This document shows positions 3,046 through 10,314 of a DNA stretch of 64,000 nt, in pieces. Below the pieces are notes generated by a model, which did no database searches, was not told the DNA's origin, and saw only the letters and a program-made list of their open reading frames with translations. The stretch spans positions 1 to 64,000 of the forward strand of contig JAZAMN010000047.1 in the NCBI GenBank assembly GCA_036229005.1, read 5' to 3'. This DNA is from Myxococcota bacterium. GTDB taxonomy: Bacteria > Myxococcota_A > UBA796 > CAJQPC01. Made by a program: the position numbers and the translations under genes. How positions within the stretch are numbered: position 1 is the stretch's first letter; the number at the start of each line of letters is the position of its first letter.

Positions 3046-4353
3046 GTGATTTTGTTGCCCACCCTCTTGGCCTGCAGCGCGCCCGCGCTCCTCGACACCT
3101 CCTCCGCAGTCGAGGACACCCGCAGCGACACCGCCCCCCAGGACACGGGCGCGCCCCAGGACACCGGTGACAGCGCGGCCCCCTGCACCCCGCAGCCCGC
3201 TGTCGAAGGCGCCTACGTCGACGCCTTCGCCGTCAACCGGGTCAGCGGCAGCCTCTCGGAGTGTGAGGGCGCCATCCACGCCGTGGCCGGCCCCAAGGGC
3301 GCCGAGATCGAGCTGTACCTGGCCGACTGGAGCAGCACCTCGCTGGCGGAATGGAACCTGAGGACGGTGGGTGGGGATCTGCTGGGAGAGGGTGAGCTCA
3401 TGTGGGGGGAGCGGGTCGAGATCCAGCTCCCCTGGACCGGGGAGTTCCTGGTGGAGCTGCGCCCGCTGGACGACAGCGCCAGCGACTACGGCCTGGAGGC
3501 GGAGTGCATCCGCAACTGCCAGGCCGCCTGGACGCGCTACCCGCTCTTCTTCATGCACGGCGTCGCGGGCACCGAGGCCTTCATCGGGGTCCTGGACTAC
3601 TGGTACGGCGTCGACGACGCGCTCTCCGACGCCGGCTACGTGGTGTGGATCAGCGACGTGGACCCCTACCAGCAGACCAGCGTCCGCGGGCAGCAGTGGG
3701 TGGACAACCTGGAGGGCTTCCTGGCCGACGGAAAGCACCGCCGGGTCAACCTGGTCGGCCACTCACAGGGGGGCGTCGACGCGCGGCATGTGACCTCGCA
3801 GCTCGACCCCCAGGCGCACGTCGCGAGCGTGACCACCATCGCATCGCCCCACCGGGGGACCCCCATCGCGGACATCGCGACCGGGGTGGTGGACAGCTCG
3901 CTGCTGACGCAGATCCTGGTGGATGGGGCCATCGACGCCCTGATGCTGTTCTACGGCAACAGCAACGACCAGGACGTCGCCAGCATGGTCGCCCAGATGA
4001 GCACCGAGGGCATGGCGCAGTTCAACGCCGAGAACCCGGACCGCGCCGACGTGATGTACCAGAGCTGGACGGGGGTCACCTGCGGCGAGCTGGACTTCGG
4101 CTGCCAGTCCAGCCACTCGGGCGAGGTCGTCACCCCGGTGTTCTCCGTCACCCGCACCATCCTTGATCTCCAGGGCATCGACAGCGACGGGCTCATCCCC
4201 GTGGACAGCGCCAAGTGGGGCACCTACCACGGCACCATCGACGCCGATCACATCGACCAGATCGGTCAGATCGCGGGCGCCACCGCGCCTGGCTTCGAGC
4301 ACCTGGACTTCTACGGGGAGATCGCAGCGAGTCTCGCTGAGCAGGGGTTCTGA
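3046..4353 (+). CDS. Lipoprotein triacylglycerol lipase (family I-like alpha/beta hydrolase)
   Basis: LLAC lipobox; TRYPLFFMHG, GHSQGG, SPHRGT, DGLIP, DHIDQI. Confidence 0.9.
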   Translation: MILLPTLLACSAPALLDTSSAVEDTRSDTAPQDTGAPQDTGDSAAPCTPQPAVEGAYVDAFAVNRVSGSLSECEGAIHAVAGPKGAEIELYLADWSSTSLAEWNLRTVGGDLLGEGELMWGERVEIQLPWTGEFLVELRPLDDSASDYGLEAECIRNCQAAWTRYPLFFMHGVAGTEAFIGVLDYWYGVDDALSDAGYVVWISDVDPYQQTSVRGQQWVDNLEGFLADGKHRRVNLVGHSQGGVDARHVTSQLDPQAHVASVTTIASPHRGTPIADIATGVVDSSLLTQILVDGAIDALMLFYGNSNDQDVASMVAQMSTEGMAQFNAENPDRADVMYQSWTGVTCGELDFGCQSSHSGEVVTPVFSVTRTILDLQGIDSDGLIPVDSAKWGTYHGTIDADHIDQIGQIAGATAPGFEHLDFYGEIAASLAEQGF

Positions 4354-4424
4354 GCCGTCGGCCTCGGGGCAGGCGTGGCCTGGTAGCAGTGCCTGCAGCG
4401 TGCCGGAGGTGCGCCTTTGGCGGA

Positions 4425-4776
4425 GCATCTCCCCCTGAACGCCCGCCGCTGGGAGGCATCCGGGGGTGAACGCACGCCGAGAGGGAGCATCCGGGGTTGA
4501 ACGCCCGGGCCCAATCCGAACAAGCCGCAGACTGGGACCAGATCTGAGTGGGCAGGAGTAGTCGGGCTTCAACTGTCCCAGCATGGGGTGAAGTCGGCGC
4601 CCTGAACGCGCCCGTGCGCCCAAATGCCCAGTCCAGCCGGGCGTTCAACCCGGGATGCCCGACCGGAGCGTGCGTTCAACCCCAGATGCCCAGCTCAAGG
4701 CGGCGTTCAACCCCAGATGCCCAGCCCAAGGCGGCGTTCAACCCCAGATGCCCAGCTCAGGCGGGCGTTCAACCCA
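4425..4776. repeat. Inverted pair of 31-bp tandem arrays (3 reverse + 5 forward units)
   Basis: GCATC..TGAACGC at 4425, 4456, 4487; GCGTTCAACCC at 4641, 4672, 4703, 4734, 4765. Confidence 0.9.
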
Positions 4777-4865
4777 GCCGGACCTCGGAGATGCAGGAGT
4801 CCCCGTCCCTCCGGAGCGGTCCTTGAGGCTGGAGAGGTGAGCCCACCAGCCCCAGGGCGCCGAGA

Positions 4866-6032
4866 TCAATACACCGGAAGGCTGGTGTCGATCTCCTTGG
4901 CCCAGTCCGTGATCCCGCCCTGCAGGTTGAACAGGCGCTTGGGGTCGAACCCGGCCTCGATCAGGCTCTCGATGGCGGTCGCGGAGCGCCCGCCCATCTT
5001 GCAGTGGACCAGGATGTCGCGGTCGCGGGGGAGCTCGTCGGCGATGGCCAGGATCTGCCCGTGGGGCTGCAGGCGATCGGCGAAGTCGAGCTTGGCGATC
5101 TCCGCCTCGGCCGGGCGACGCACGTCCAGCACGTAGGGGGTCCAGCCGTTGTCCAAGCGCTGCTTGGCTTCCTTCACGCCGATTCGTTGGAATGCACCCA
5201 CGTCTGCCTCTCCTTGGGTCTGGTGGTCGTTTGCGGGGACGCCGCAGAAGGCCTCGTAGTCGATCAGCTCGGTGATCTCGGGGGCGTCGGGATCCCGGCG
5301 CAGCTTGAGCTCGCGGAAGCGCATGTTCAGGGCGTCGTAGAGCATCAGGCGGCCGGACAGGCTGGTGCCCTTGCCCAGCAGGATCTTGATGGTCTCGGTG
5401 GCCTGGATGCAGCCGATGACGCCCGGCAGGATGCCCAGCACGCCGCCCTCAGCGCAGCTCGGGACCAGCCCGGGGGGCGGGGGCTCGGGGTACAGGTCCC
5501 GGTAGTTGGGCCCGTCCTGGTAGTTGAACACGCTGGCCTGGCCCTCGAACTTGAAGATCGAGCCGTACACGTTGGGCTTGCCCAGCAGCACGCAGGCGTC
5601 GTTGACCAGGTAGCGGGTCGGGAAGTTGTCGGTGCCGTCCACGACCACGTCGTAGGGCTCCAGGATGCGCAGGGCGTTGCCGGAGTTCAGCGGCTCCTCG
5701 TAGATGTCCACCTGTACGTTGGGGTTGATGTCCGCGATGCGGCGCGCGGCGGAGCGCACCTTGGGCTCGCCCACGCTGCTGGTGCCGTGGATGACCTGGC
5801 GCTGCAGGTTGGAGCTGTCCACCACGTCAAAGTCCACGATGCCGATGCGCCCGACGCCCGCGGCGGCCAGGTACATCAGCAGGGGGGAGCCCAGGCCGCC
5901 GGTGCCGATGCAGAGCACGCTTGCGCTCTTGAGCTTGCGCTGGCCCTCGACCCCGACCTCGTCCAGGATCAGGTGCCGGCTGTAGCGCTGGTACTCCTCG
6001 CCGGAGAGCTCCGGCAGGTCCTCGGCGCTCAC
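4866..6032 (-). CDS. moeB: MoeB/MoeZ E1-like adenylyltransferase with C-terminal rhodanese domain
   Basis: RYSRHLIL, IGTGGLG, DSSNLQRQ, DGTDNFPTRYLVND, VPSCAEGGVLG, rhodanese HCKMGGRS. Confidence 0.95.
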   Translation of the reverse strand: MSAEDLPELSGEEYQRYSRHLILDEVGVEGQRKLKSASVLCIGTGGLGSPLLMYLAAAGVGRIGIVDFDVVDSSNLQRQVIHGTSSVGEPKVRSAARRIADINPNVQVDIYEEPLNSGNALRILEPYDVVVDGTDNFPTRYLVNDACVLLGKPNVYGSIFKFEGQASVFNYQDGPNYRDLYPEPPPPGLVPSCAEGGVLGILPGVIGCIQATETIKILLGKGTSLSGRLMLYDALNMRFRELKLRRDPDAPEITELIDYEAFCGVPANDHQTQGEADVGAFQRIGVKEAKQRLDNGWTPYVLDVRRPAEAEIAKLDFADRLQPHGQILAIADELPRDRDILVHCKMGGRSATAIESLIEAGFDPKRLFNLQGGITDWAKEIDTSLPVY

Positions 6033-6730
6033 AGGGAACCGCCCGCGATGGAGGGCACGATGGTGAGCTCGGCGCCCTCGGTGACCGCCGTGTCCTCCTT
6101 GTCCAGGAAGCGGATGTCCTCGTCGCCCAGGTACACGTTCACGAAGCTGCGCAGCTTGCCGTCGTCGTTGCGCAGGTGCTTGAGCAGCTTGGGGTTCTGG
6201 TCGGTGAGCGCCTTGAGGGCCTCGCCCACGGTGTTCGCGCTGACGTCCACGGAGGGCTTGCCCTCGGTGTAGGCCCGCAGAGGAGTGGGGATGTGCACGG
6301 TGACGGTCATGGGGGCTCCCAGGATCTCGATGGGTTCAGGGTCCATGGCGCTGCGGTCTTCGCGCAGTCGCCAGGAGAGGATGTCCACCACCCGCCCACT
6401 GTGGACGGCGGCGATGAGGTAGCTCAGGTTGGGCAGCGCGTGGTCCCGGTCGTAGTCGGAGTAGCGCGCTGGGTGGTCGGGGTGGCTGTGGTAATAGCCA
6501 AGGATCTCAAGCCCTTGAGACTCGATCTCCCGCTCGGCCTTCATGAGCGTCAGGCCGCTGACCTTGTAGCGGTTGTGGGCGCTGTCCGCGCGCTCGTTGA
6601 TCAGCGCCTTGACCTTGCTCACGCGCCGGCCGTGCCCCGCCAGGATGCCCACCACCTCGTGGGGGTAGCCGGCCTCGACGTGGGCGTTCAGGGCGGCCGC
6701 CGGTGCGGCCTCGATCTCGAGGGTGTCCAT
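6029..6730 (-). CDS. Mec/M67 JAMM peptidase fused in frame to a CysO/MoaD ubiquitin-like sulfur carrier (internal ATG at 6310)
   Basis: YPHEVVG and YHSHPDHPARYSDYD, then MTVTVHIPTPLR...FVNVYL...IVPSIAGGSL with no stop between. Confidence 0.85.
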   Translation of the reverse strand: MDTLEIEAAPAAALNAHVEAGYPHEVVGILAGHGRRVSKVKALINERADSAHNRYKVSGLTLMKAEREIESQGLEILGYYHSHPDHPARYSDYDRDHALPNLSYLIAAVHSGRVVDILSWRLREDRSAMDPEPIEILGAPMTVTVHIPTPLRAYTEGKPSVDVSANTVGEALKALTDQNPKLLKHLRNDDGKLRSFVNVYLGDEDIRFLDKEDTAVTEGAELTIVPSIAGGSL

Positions 6731-6731
6731 C

Positions 6732-7685
6732 TCAGACCTCCCAGATGTGGTCTTCGCTGAGGTAGCGGGAGCCACCGTCGGCGAACAGGGTGACGATGAC
6801 GCCGGACTCGCCGCGCTCCTTGAGCTCCTTGGCGAGCTCCAGGGCCGCCCAGAGCGCCGCACCGCTGGAGACACCGGCCAGCAGCCCCTCCTCGCGCGCC
6901 AGGCGCCGGACCAGCTCGAACGCGGGCTCCGTGGGGGCGCCCATGGCCCGGTCCGCCAGGCCCTCGGGCTGGTAGATGGCGGGCACGATGGCGGTCTCCA
7001 TGTGCTTGAGCCCCTCCAGCCCGTGGAAGGGGGAGTCGGGCTCGACGGTCGCCGCGAACAGCGTGGGCTGCTGCTCCTTGAGAAAGCGCGCCGTCCCCAT
7101 GAAGGTCCCGCTCGTCCCCAGCGTGGTGACAAAGTGGGTGATGCGCCCCGCAGTTCCTCGCCAGATCTCGGGGCCCGTGGTCTTGTAGTGGGCCTGCCAG
7201 TTGGCGGGGTTGGAGTACTGATCTGCGTAGAAGTACCGGTCTGGCTCACCCTCCGAGAGCTCTCGGGCCTTCCGGATGGCCCCATCGGATCCTTCCAACG
7301 GCGAGGTCAACACGAGCTCGACGCCATAGGCCCGCAGGATGCGCTTGCGCTCGGCGTTTGCGTTCGCGGGCAGGCAGAGGGTCACCTTGTAGCCCCGGCT
7401 TGCGGCCAGCCACGCATACGCGATGCCGGTGTTCCCGGAGGAGGCGTCCAGCAGCGTCATGCCCGGCTTGAGCAGCCCCTGGTGCTCCGCGGTCTCCACG
7501 ATGCTCAGCGCCGCCCGGTCCTTGACGGAGCCGCCCGGGTTGAACCACTCCAGCTTGGCGTGGATCTCGATGTCGTCGGGGATCCCGAAGGCCGCGGGGA
7601 TGCGGCGCAGGCGTTGCAAGGGGGTGTCGCCCACGCGGGCGGACAGGGGCTCGCCCACGGGGCGAGATGCAGGGGGTGCAGACAT
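6732..7685 (-). CDS. cysM: PLP-dependent cysteine synthase, CysM type (sulfur-carrier dependent by context)
   Basis: VGDTPL, AKLEWFNPGGSVKDR, SSGNTG, GTSGT, GVSSGA; GGAG SD before ATG 7685. Confidence 0.9.
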   Translation of the reverse strand: MSAPPASRPVGEPLSARVGDTPLQRLRRIPAAFGIPDDIEIHAKLEWFNPGGSVKDRAALSIVETAEHQGLLKPGMTLLDASSGNTGIAYAWLAASRGYKVTLCLPANANAERKRILRAYGVELVLTSPLEGSDGAIRKARELSEGEPDRYFYADQYSNPANWQAHYKTTGPEIWRGTAGRITHFVTTLGTSGTFMGTARFLKEQQPTLFAATVEPDSPFHGLEGLKHMETAIVPAIYQPEGLADRAMGAPTEPAFELVRRLAREEGLLAGVSSGAALWAALELAKELKERGESGVIVTLFADGGSRYLSEDHIWEV

Positions 7686-7759
7686 GCACACTCCATTCAA
7701 TCAATGGGGCAGGGGGAGGGCGATGTGGGCGCTCCAGGCGCCGGCGGGGCTGCGTTCAG

Positions 7760-7864
7760 CTAGGCAGCGCCGCCCTCCATACAGAGACAGCAGAGACAGA
7801 GGCAGGCCTCGCTGCGGTCATCGCAGGCAAGGTGGCGCGGGCTCTGGCTCATGGGGTGCGTCAT
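7760..7864 (-). CDS. Cys-rich leader peptide MTHPMSQSPRHLACDDRSEACLCLCCLCMEGGAA; putative cysteine-sensing attenuator
   Basis: Hand-translated 34-aa ORF; 5 Cys in 8 codons; stop 74 nt upstream of the cysM start. Confidence 0.75.
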   Translation of the reverse strand: MTHPMSQSPRHLACDDRSEACLCLCCLCMEGGAA

Positions 7865-7872
7865 TCGTTTCG

Positions 7873-7901
7873 AGTATGCCGACAGCGGGGTGGGGTTGCA
7901 G
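7873..7901 (-). promoter_or_regulatory. Putative sigma70 promoter giving a (near-)leaderless transcript of the Cys leader
   Basis: CTGCAA-17 nt-CATACT, with the -10 box 8 nt before ATG 7864. Confidence 0.55.
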
Positions 7902-7909
7902 CCGACTGT

Positions 7910-8452
7910 CTACTTTTTGCTCACCGCTTCGATGGCGTCAAGGATGGCCTGCGGATCCGCCAGAGCGCCCACGCCCACATCGCCACAGGCCAGCCGCTTG
8001 CTGACGGGCTCGACGAAGCTGTAGCGCCCCAGATCCCGCAGCCAGCCCAGGTTCCGCTGCACCACGGGGGACAGGTACATCTCGGTGTTCATGGCGGGGG
8101 CGAGCACGCAGGGGGTGTGGCTGCGTAGGGCCATCATGACGGTGGAAAGCCCGTCATCGGCGATCCCGCAGGCCAGCTTGCCCAGGATGTTGGCCGTCGC
8201 GGGGGCCACGCAGGCCACGTCCGCCCACTTAGGCAGGTCGATGTGGTCGATGCCCGGGCTGCCCACGCCGGTGAAGGTGCCGGTCATCACGGGGCGGCCG
8301 CTCAGGGCCTCGAAGGTGATGGGCCCGACAAAGCGCGTGGCGCTCTCGGACATGACGACCTGCACTTCGTGCCCGGCCTTGCGCGCGCGGGAGACGAGAT
8401 CGCAGGCCTTGTAGGCGGCGACCCCGCCGCTGACACCCAGAAGCAGCTTCAC
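7910..8452 (-). CDS. coaC: Stand-alone phosphopantothenoylcysteine decarboxylase (HFCD flavoprotein)
   Basis: LLGVSGGVAAYK, HIDL, APATANILGK, PAMNTEMY, LACGDVGVG. Confidence 0.9.
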   Translation of the reverse strand: MKLLLGVSGGVAAYKACDLVSRARKAGHEVQVVMSESATRFVGPITFEALSGRPVMTGTFTGVGSPGIDHIDLPKWADVACVAPATANILGKLACGIADDGLSTVMMALRSHTPCVLAPAMNTEMYLSPVVQRNLGWLRDLGRYSFVEPVSKRLACGDVGVGALADPQAILDAIEAVSKK

Positions 8453-10314
8453 TGGAGGCTCCCGATCTCAGGCTCGCCGGCCACGGCGCCCTCCAGGAAC
8501 TCCTTGTAGAGGGAGGCGGCCTCGGAGAGCTCGAAGATGACGAAGTGGCCGCGCCCGGAGTAGCTGGCCATACCGCTGGTCACGCTCTGCTCACCCCACG
8601 CCGGGATGGATCGCAGCACCGGCGAGGACACCGGCTCTATCCCCAGCACCTGGTGGGCCTCGGGGATGTCCCCGCTGTCGACGAAGGGCGCGCCGGCCGC
8701 CGCGCTCAGGGCGTCGGAGGTCTCCGGCGGGGTGTACTCGTCCATCGTCCCCTGGAAGAGCAGCACGTCCACGGGGCGCTCCGTGAACCACGCGCGCCGC
8801 TGGTTCCAGTAGGGGGCGTAGTTGATGGGGTCGGTGACGTCGGCCAGGGACTGCAGCAGCGCGGCGATGGGGTGCATCGCGTCAAAGGTCTCGCCGTCGG
8901 AGAAGTCCAGCAGCGAGGTCACCAGCTCCTCCAGGTCCAGGTCGCCCTGCTTGCGGTAGAGCACCGATAGGCTCAGGAAGCCGCCCGCGCCGGAGAGCAC
9001 CGCGCCGTCCAGCTCATCGCCCAGGTAGGGGAGCGCCATCGAGCCCGTGACCCCGCCCTGGCTGTGCCCCAGGTAGAGGACGTGATCCGGGTCGGTGTGC
9101 ACCTCGCCGTGCACCGTCTGGAAGCTGTGGCTGCGTCCGGACAGGATGTGGGCCAGGTAGACGCTGTCGAGGGCACCCTGGCGGAAGTTGGCCCGCGCCG
9201 AGTCCGGGTTGAAGAGGTTGAAGCTGTGCAGCTCCACGTCGGTGCCCTCCGTCCCGCGGTCACCGTGCAGGGGCTGGGAGACGCCGATCATCATCATGCC
9301 GCCCTGGGCCACCCGCCAGGCGGGCACCATGCCGCCGGAGCCGGCGCAGCAGCTCGTCCAGTCGCCGCCGGTGCCGTGGACGTAGATCACGACGGGCCAG
9401 CCGCCCTCGGGCTCCTCGCCGCTGGGGACGGTCACGGACATGGTGACGCGCTCCCAGCCGTAGAGCTGCGGGGTGCCGTCGGAATCGAACGCGAAAGCGC
9501 CGCCTTCGCTGGCGTAGGGGCGCTCCCCGTGCTGCCAGATCGGCAGGGTGACGCTGCCCTCGTAGCCCTTCCCGAAGGCGCTGTTCGTGGTGTAGTCCAG
9601 CTCCTGGTCCAAGGACTGGACGCCGAGCTCTGTCTCGATGTGGCGGGCCAGGGTGGCCTGCTCCTGGACGGGATCCTGGGTGCGGAAGCGGGTCGCGATC
9701 GCGATGTCCTCGCTGGTGAGGCCCTGCTCGAAGAGCCAGGCGTCCAACAAGGCCCAGTCGGTGTAGGACCCCCGATCGGGGTCCAAGGCATCCTTGAACC
9801 CATCGGACTGGGTGGCGATCCGGCTGGTGACCAGGGCCGTGTACAGGGTGCCGGGTCGCAGGGGGGCCCCGGGGATGGGGGCGAAGGCCAGCAGGTTCTC
9901 GGGCTGGTAGGTGGTCGCGGTGGCCTGGAAGTCGGTGTGTAGGGGCACCAGCTCGCCAAAGCCGGGGCTCTCGGGGTCCAGGTTCACCAGCATCACGCTG
10001 GCCTCCTGCGGGTCCAGGGACTCGGCGGCGCTGGGCAGCAGCGCGGTGTCGATGGGGCCGTCGAAGCGGAAGTACACGGGCCCGTTGGTGGAGAAGCCGT
10101 CCAGCTCCTGCTCCATCGCCAGCGCGTAGTTCTCGATCAGCGGGAAGGTGTCGGCGCCGGGGAAGCCGGCCATGTCGGGAGCGCCGCCTTCCAGGGTGCG
10201 GGCCTGGGAGGGCCAGGGGCTGTCGAAGAACGCGCCCGCGGGGTCGTCCAGGGGTGCAGGACGCTCGATGGTCTCCTCACAGGCCACAAGCGCCAGAAGC
10301 CAAGCCGCAGTCAT
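8449..10314 (-). CDS. Lipoprotein alpha/beta hydrolase with N-terminal Ig-like region
   Basis: LVAC lipobox; DGFSTNGPVYFRF, YVHGTGG, YLGHSQGG, C-terminal GHF. Confidence 0.8.
   Translation of the reverse strand: MTAAWLLALVACEETIERPAPLDDPAGAFFDSPWPSQARTLEGGAPDMAGFPGADTFPLIENYALAMEQELDGFSTNGPVYFRFDGPIDTALLPSAAESLDPQEASVMLVNLDPESPGFGELVPLHTDFQATATTYQPENLLAFAPIPGAPLRPGTLYTALVTSRIATQSDGFKDALDPDRGSYTDWALLDAWLFEQGLTSEDIAIATRFRTQDPVQEQATLARHIETELGVQSLDQELDYTTNSAFGKGYEGSVTLPIWQHGERPYASEGGAFAFDSDGTPQLYGWERVTMSVTVPSGEEPEGGWPVVIYVHGTGGDWTSCCAGSGGMVPAWRVAQGGMMMIGVSQPLHGDRGTEGTDVELHSFNLFNPDSARANFRQGALDSVYLAHILSGRSHSFQTVHGEVHTDPDHVLYLGHSQGGVTGSMALPYLGDELDGAVLSGAGGFLSLSVLYRKQGDLDLEELVTSLLDFSDGETFDAMHPIAALLQSLADVTDPINYAPYWNQRRAWFTERPVDVLLFQGTMDEYTPPETSDALSAAAGAPFVDSGDIPEAHQVLGIEPVSSPVLRSIPAWGEQSVTSGMASYSGRGHFVIFELSEAASLYKEFLEGAVAGEPEIGSLQ

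Follow-up and report, generated by a model that had tools for sequence, protein, structure and literature searches.

The window, a stretch of 64,000 nucleotides of a Myxococcota bacterium contig (JAZAMN010000047.1), carries on its minus strand, in this order, coaC, a short leader ORF, cysM, mec::cysO and moeZ (Table 1). The leader measures 105 nt and encodes 34 residues, six of them cysteines, three of which are specified by TGT; a gap of 74 nt separates its stop codon from the ATG of cysM (7685). It sits directly upstream of cysteine-related genes, one of the properties by which mycobacterial small ORFs (sORFs) of this kind are recognized, and it also has their size and consecutive cysteines, being no longer than 150 nt and having Cys25 next to Cys26 in all four genomes of the genus. 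An earlier note on this DNA had described the ORF, its cysteine and TGT counts, the hexamers in front of it with their 17-nt spacer and the 74-nt gap, and a re-reading of the sequence returned each of them as described. The leader is a real, conserved, unannotated and putatively regulatory ORF.

Table 1. Features of the leader region and its operon, with positions in the window. Stems and hairpins are predictions.
Feature	Position	Strand	Remarks
coaC-like phosphopantothenoylcysteine decarboxylase	7910..8452	-	TIGR00521/TIGR02113 below cut-off; stops 45 nt before leader
Candidate -35, CTGCAA	7896..7901	-	TGCAAC invariant in 4/4 genus genomes
Candidate -10, CATACT	7873..7878	-	17 nt from -35, 8 nt before leader ATG; CATAC in 3/4 genomes
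Cys-rich leader ORF, 34 codons	7760..7864	-	Kept without indels in 4/4 genus genomes
Stem P0, 5' arm	7841..7850	-	Predicted; pairs with start of Cys tract (7802-7793) on ribosome-free RNA; one both-side change
Cys tract, codons 21-28	7781..7804	-	Holds 5/6 leader cysteines; Cys 23, 25, 26 and 28 invariant
Stem P1, 5' arm: purine-rich post-Cys segment, codons 29-30	7775..7780	-	Predicted; captures pyrimidine tract
Hairpin H1 across the stop codon	7743..7774	-	Predicted; GGAA codons (7774-7764) with non-coding arm (7753-7743)
Hairpin H2, 5-bp GC stem, variable loop	7728..7742	-	Predicted; from consensus fold
Pyrimidine-rich tract	7704..7724	-	Possible role as anti-SD or in Rho loading; U-run terminator absent
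cysM Shine-Dalgarno (SD), GGAG	7691..7694	-	9-10 nt before start in 4/4 genomes
Cysteine synthase, cysM-type by gene context	6732..7685	-	Best NCBIfam TIGR01138, 345 bits, below 394 cut-off
Mec::CysO, JAMM protease fused in frame to ubiquitin-like carrier	6029..6730	-	233 aa, ends GG + 2 residues
MoeZ/MoeB E1 with rhodanese domain	4866..6032	-	Profile matches

A CysO-CysM-Mec-MoeZ pathway is known from M. tuberculosis, as described in the available text of PMC3227635. Here the best PDB matches of CysM are generic cysteine synthases, and the CysO part of the fusion matches SAMP1/MoaD models. No cysE was found in the genome, which is 94% complete, and the other cysK-like gene looks like one for CBS, beside a gamma-lyase-like gene. 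The operon may therefore be the sole de novo route to cysteine, and the failure to find cysE supplies a reason for cysteine to control it.

In many genomes of the order, the gene immediately upstream of cysM is this coaC half on its own, encoding the decarboxylase only, an adjacency that ties the cysteine-consuming CoA step to cysteine synthesis. The Mec::CysO fusion occurs in the four genus genomes and at locus L018; among 125 cysO loci, the two genes are separate in 108 and no mec match lies nearby in 12. At L005-L008, L010, L011, L014 and L023, cysO directly follows cysM with no mec match in the locus. The carrier at these loci keeps residues after the GG in all seven tails read, and the protease must be encoded elsewhere or be divergent. 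At L015, L019, L024 and L027, cysO continues in frame past the GG into moeZ-like sequence, giving a carrier-E1 fusion. GC-rich repeats at about 4200-4800 of the window, between a lipase-like gene and moeZ, show up as peptide patterns that recur in spurious ORFs and are possibly intergenic repeats.

The leader stands out within its own genome. Among 3623 intergenic short ORFs (ATG start, 8-60 residues, home-made gene calls) it alone has five cysteines in eight codons, and it is the most cysteine-dense; four in eight codons occur in six of these ORFs and three in 50. TGT makes up 12.8% of the cysteine codons in 1467 long genes of the genome, against which three of six in the leader gives p ~0.03 taken alone; over the four genus leaders, which are kin and so not independent, it accounts for 13 of 19. 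None of the four leader peptides occurs, by exact look-up, in a collection of 15 billion proteins, the leader peptide has no NCBIfam match, and an Rfam scan of 7400-8100 at E<=5 returned nothing. Among public RNA runs, one matched 0.07 of the words; of two runs compared with the window, one yielded a single 388-nt contig, over mec::cysO (6176-6563), and the leader stayed uncovered, which bears on its transcription neither way.

All three congeners keep the reading frame, with spacers of 74-76 nt to a cysM whose product is 75-77% identical to that of the window. Twelve leader residues are invariant over the four genomes, including both methionines, the four cysteines listed in Table 1 and a GGAA end, and the middle of the peptide diverges. 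At three of these four cysteines TGT and TGC are exchanged across the genus. The residue after the Cys run is M, I, M and L in the four genomes, and the methionine that the earlier note had seen there is thus not general; sensing of methionine was rejected because that position is not conserved. That note had also asked for conserved cysteines with divergent flanks in relatives, and this is what the three congeners and the enrichment upstream of cysM orthologues (below) provide. A BLAST search with the leader DNA against 154 genomes of the order gave one clear congener, the remainder being noise. A metagenome scan found no member of this genus (best match 67% identity), and covariation therefore rests on four sequences.

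A consensus fold of these four (RNAalifold) predicts the stems and hairpins of Table 1 together with a local hairpin that takes in the SD and start codon of cysM. All 10 pairs of H1 form in all four genomes, with one compensatory U-A/C-G change, and the GGAA codons are no more invariant than the non-coding arm that they face. P1 joins codons 28-30 to the pyrimidine tract, with both-side changes at three of eight pairs and 72% of cells paired. It is mostly broken in genome G003, where one of its both-side changes is isolated, and a register-matched P1 forced on the window sequence lies 6.2 kcal/mol above the best fold. P1, H1 and H2 together have 88% of cells paired and four pairs with both-side changes, a score that 6 of 500 shuffles also reach; since the same four related sequences served to derive the structure, the covariation lends these predicted elements weak support. 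A consensus scan of 4000-9000 in the window found no intrinsic terminator, and inspection of the congeners found none next to a hairpin. We reject an intrinsic terminator for this genus. H1 nevertheless contains a CCCGCC arm, half of the terminator found in genera g14 and g47 of the same order, in an antiterminator-like geometry; no second arm or U-run follows it.

As to where transcription begins, a consensus promoter scan found no promoters. The genome has a leaderless signature, TAnnnT, which lies 6 nt before the ATG in 80 of 1527 genes, as against 25 at a gap of 7, nine at 8 and at most six at each of 2-5 and 9-17. The CATACT of the window stands at a gap of 8 and has a non-consensus first base; among the congeners the gap is 7 in one and 22, with an SD-like stretch, in another, and the third has no hexamer. 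By eye, the leaders of g14 and g47 mostly have TAnnnT-type hexamers. The leaderless start of the earlier description is putative: the gap misses the genome's peak, and neither gap nor hexamer is conserved throughout the genus. A transcript start at or just before the leader AUG is plausible from the sequence and would not be a conserved property. No terminator was found in the 45 nt between coaC and the leader, so read-through from coaC is possible.

We propose that the leader senses cysteine and switches the operon on when charged tRNA-Cys is scarce, by way of a predicted RNA switch that has no intrinsic terminator, and we give this reading a probability of roughly 0.7. That the leader senses cysteine, by whatever route, is highly probable. 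When cysteine is low, the ribosome would wait at Cys 21-26 and the purine-rich 3' end of the leader would stay free. In H1 this free end would pair with the arm beyond the stop, and in P1 with the pyrimidine tract; arm and tract would both be sequestered and the operon would be on. With ample cysteine, a ribosome at the stop codon would cover the leader end, the C/U-rich spacer would be released and the operon would be off. The leader peptide itself would probably be a by-product. The released tract may then mask the ribosome-binding site of cysM, and the block would extend downstream through coupling and polarity, a step on which we would lay almost even odds. As a second option, rated after SD masking and somewhat unlikely, Rho would load directly on the released C-rich RNA.

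Folding with ribosome masks is consistent with the first half of this scheme. In most states with an early stall, H1 is predicted at 0.8-1.0. With the ribosome stalled at Cys25, the post-Cys segment is predicted to pair with the tract at 0.9-1.0 in three of four genomes; the ribosome footprint at the stop blocks both. The effect on the SD is uneven. On transcripts that end at the cysM AUG, a truncation tried only after a first negative result, SD opening rises from the Cys25 stall to the stop from 1.4 to 6.4-6.6 and from 3.4-3.7 to 6.4-6.5 kcal/mol in two congeners (G001 and G002), the change is reversed in G003, and the window genome shows no switch (5.2-6.3 stalled vs 4.9-5.6 kcal/mol at the stop). 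Once 12 or more bases of cysM are included, the SD switch is gone in all four genomes (runs with 15-60 nt, equilibrium folding). In a method control, five of seven terminator-type leaders were also without a switch, which makes equilibrium folding weak evidence both for and against one.

For the Rho option, a ribosome at the stop leaves 3-7 more unpaired C than a stalled one; the spacer's C-over-G skew ranks only among the highest 5-12% of comparable 5' regions, and the stretch of open C-rich RNA is a short one. Matches to rho (E<=1e-60) are present in two of three congeners and 137 of 154 genomes of the order. In the window's own genome there is a C-terminal piece of rho at a contig edge (G000:C34:3-185), followed by genes that we take to be rpmE-prfA-prmC; the idea of a genome without Rho was dropped, given this edge fragment and the matches across the lineage. 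Attenuators that depend on both a uORF and Rho have precedents in mgtL, corL, tnaC and speFL (reviewed in PMC12360218, in the portion available). In mgtL and corL, according to that portion, the speed of uORF translation decides between RNA folds in which a Rho site is hidden and folds in which it is exposed, much as it would under the Rho option here; unlike in those cases, the signal here would be Cys-tRNA, and the role of Rho is hypothetical. Comparable, too, are the cys leader peptides predicted in Actinobacteria (Seliverstov et al., PMC1262725), for which the available text likewise gives cysteines near the stop, no terminator and pyrimidine tracts before the first gene, and proposes Rho. 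Two conserved hairpins follow the leader in our genus, whereas none is reported in the accessible part of that paper.

The nearest experimental relative is mycobacterial. Poly-Cys sORFs act there as translational attenuators, Ms5788A being the case described (Canestrari et al., 10.1101/834739), and are cited as such in PMC13236596, PMC13402693 and PMC13096801, as far as the available portions of these sources go. Like Ms5788A, our leader is an unannotated short ORF with a C-terminal cysteine cluster, comes first in a cysteine operon without an intrinsic terminator, and is predicted to turn the operon on when the ribosome stalls. It belongs to another phylum and precedes another operon (cysM-mec::cysO-moeZ), its cysteines are spread out and do not form a run of eight, its leaderless start is putative, and its predicted switch runs through the post-Cys segment and a stop-spanning hairpin instead of a pairing between Cys tract and SD.

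That last difference could be doubted, since the mycobacterial logic, in which freed Cys codons pair with the cysM SD region to turn the operon off and a stalled ribosome covers them to turn it on, has its precedent in the part of bioRxiv 10.1101/834739 available and is open to our sequences in principle. Across the four genomes, duplexes of Cys tract and SD come to -6.0, -9.6, -11.9 and -8.7 kcal/mol, and SD opening in the window genome costs 7.8-9.4 ribosome-free vs 5.2-6.3 stalled (AUG-ended transcript). The difference between free and stalled states is, however, absent in G002 and reversed in G003, the consensus fold assigns the Cys tract to P0 with the 5' half of the leader, and nothing in this logic would account for the invariance of the non-coding H1 arm; we consider this logic improbable here. 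The earlier idea of a cysteine-responsive sensor before a sulfur-carrier operon keeps its core, with conserved cysteines and enrichment in its favour. Its equivalence to the mycobacterial device is less well supported, the consensus fold pairing the Cys tract with the leader 5' half and not with the SD.

Our preferred reading, a cysteine-sensing switch without a terminator, shares with classical attenuators (trp/his, and the uORFC-8-2 discussed below) cognate codons in a short leader and an arm at its 3' end placed as in an antiterminator. It differs from them in that this genus has no U-tailed terminator and that the target is sulfur-carrier biosynthesis, not a tRNA synthetase. The terminator half within H1, to which nothing answers downstream, and the want of a consistent switch in the window genome would suit a classical attenuator in decay, with its terminator already gone; the Cys codons might alternatively report a signal other than cysteine supply, for example tRNA-Cys modification or oxidative load. 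The frame, the Cys codons, the spacer length and both hairpins are nevertheless kept across four genomes, and such conservation at the CysM identity given above argues against decay; we hold these options to be quite improbable.

A functional peptide, whether a substrate or decoy of Mec/MoeZ through its GG + 2 tail, a modified-peptide precursor or a CxCCxC metal binder, is very improbable. In its favour, all four genomes keep the GGAA end, every visible codon change being synonymous, Cys spacing is fixed in the genus and GGAA also ends the carriers of some relatives. Against it, the arm predicted to pair with the GGAA codons is non-coding and just as invariant, third positions in these codons vary where they are unpaired or compensated, the peptide matches no NCBIfam model and is too short for the beta-grasp domain of the CysO/ThiS/MoaD carriers, which it resembles in the GG + 2 tail only, and other leaders of the order have no GG end and different Cys spacing. 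Among these genomes the tails of the real carriers differ (GGSL, GGLV, GGAL and GGVQ) and the leader tail is fixed, as RNA pairing would demand. The substrate alternative raised earlier on the strength of the GG + 2 end is better explained by H1 pairing across the stop.

Similar leaders recur upstream of cysM well beyond the genus. We scored a leader where an ORF with an ATG start and 5-60 codons had at least four cysteines in eight codons no more than 400 nt upstream, using 83 order loci (one of 84 dropped for a short flank), 76 GTDB loci (four duplicates dropped) and 71 metagenome loci (nine dropped); as these include kin, the counts are not independent. Leaders were found at 9 of 83, 13 of 76 and 6 of 71 loci, respectively, with none in antisense in any set and means over 20 shuffles of 0.15 for the order, 0.1 for GTDB and 0.0 for metagenomes. 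The same test is positive at 12 of 5255 genes genome-wide. A threshold of three cysteines gives 12, 19 and 7 positives against shuffle means of 2.0, 1.65 and 1.25. A match at L011 is an artefact that falls inside coaC.

Elsewhere in the order the leaders are patchy, being present at all five cysM loci of genus g14, at one g47 locus and at one g9 locus, with no leader within 400 nt upstream at 72 of the 83 order loci. Other orders of the class had none at any of the 12 loci retrieved from 13 cysM matches. Positive records are labelled Anaerolineae/Chloroflexota, Acidobacteriota and Ignavibacteriales. Those inspected from Chloroflexota (L051, L056, L072, L084, L106), Acidobacteriota (L098, L101) and Ignavibacteriales (L059) are poly-Cys leaders 14-44 codons in length; between them and the same cysM clade lie long GC hairpins with U-runs. 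In the Chloroflexota leaders the Cys tract is predicted to pair with a stretch just 3' of the stop. Cys spacing differs among lineages, so it is the number of cysteines and not their geometry that is kept.

Full classical attenuators precede cysM in other genera of this order. The leaders of g14 and g47 carry hairpin and U-run terminators, and at two of these loci, when the folding is masked for a stalled ribosome, the post-Cys G-rich segment and the CCCGCC arm form an antiterminator. At four g14 loci (L227, L229, L230 and L233) two Cys-rich leaders lie in series 100-470 nt in front of cysM, with an intrinsic terminator after the first and a different hairpin set after the second, an arrangement that is clear in three and weak in L233.

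The leaders strongly favour TGT. In 23 hand-picked leaders the ratio of TGT to TGC is 83:32, vs 18:97 in the operon genes at the same loci. A single tRNA-Cys(GCA) was found in the genome, which makes TGT the wobble-read codon; the bias could also stem from the needs of pairing.

Cysteine leaders outside the mycobacteria have been predicted before. A two-Cys uORF attenuator, uORFC-8-2, is placed upstream of cysS in Rhodobacterales in the available text of PMC8632094, which weakens the novelty in Gram-negatives that had been suggested for the present locus, and a two-Cys leaderless leader is predicted before cysS of Deinococcus in that of PMC4007540. In the literature covered (mostly open-access, main texts) we found no Cys leader described before cysM-mec-cysO-moeZ or in Myxococcota, and the accessible part of a Term-seq preprint (10.1101/2022.06.01.494293) holds no cysteine passage. 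The leader would work like known amino-acid attenuators, lacks the terminator that marks the classical ones, and is only a putative member of the mycobacterial leaderless class.

A tentative history, which we would not press, is that the genus rewired a classical attenuator, keeping the hairpin, losing the terminator and turning the leader end into an anti-anti-SD or a Rho shield. On this view, control by Cys leaders of the sulfur-carrier cysM clade would be widespread over several phyla, with intrinsic termination, tandem leaders, terminator-free leaders and transcription-factor operators swapped within one order. If our reading is true, ribosome-based cysteine sensing, experimentally established in mycobacteria, also governs the CysO route in a Myxococcota-like lineage. 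An order with terminator-type, tandem and terminator-free leaders would be a natural series in which the sensor is kept and the output changed, and the TGT bias would be a testable design rule. The principle is a textbook one, and nothing is overturned by it.

At 13 leader-less loci of the order (L009, L011, L016, L020, L022, L023, L194, L202, L203, L205, L206, L231 and L241), palindromes of the form CCTAC-N-GTAGG or ACCCT-N-AGGGT lie upstream of cysM. They are possibly a transcription-factor operator in place of the leader.
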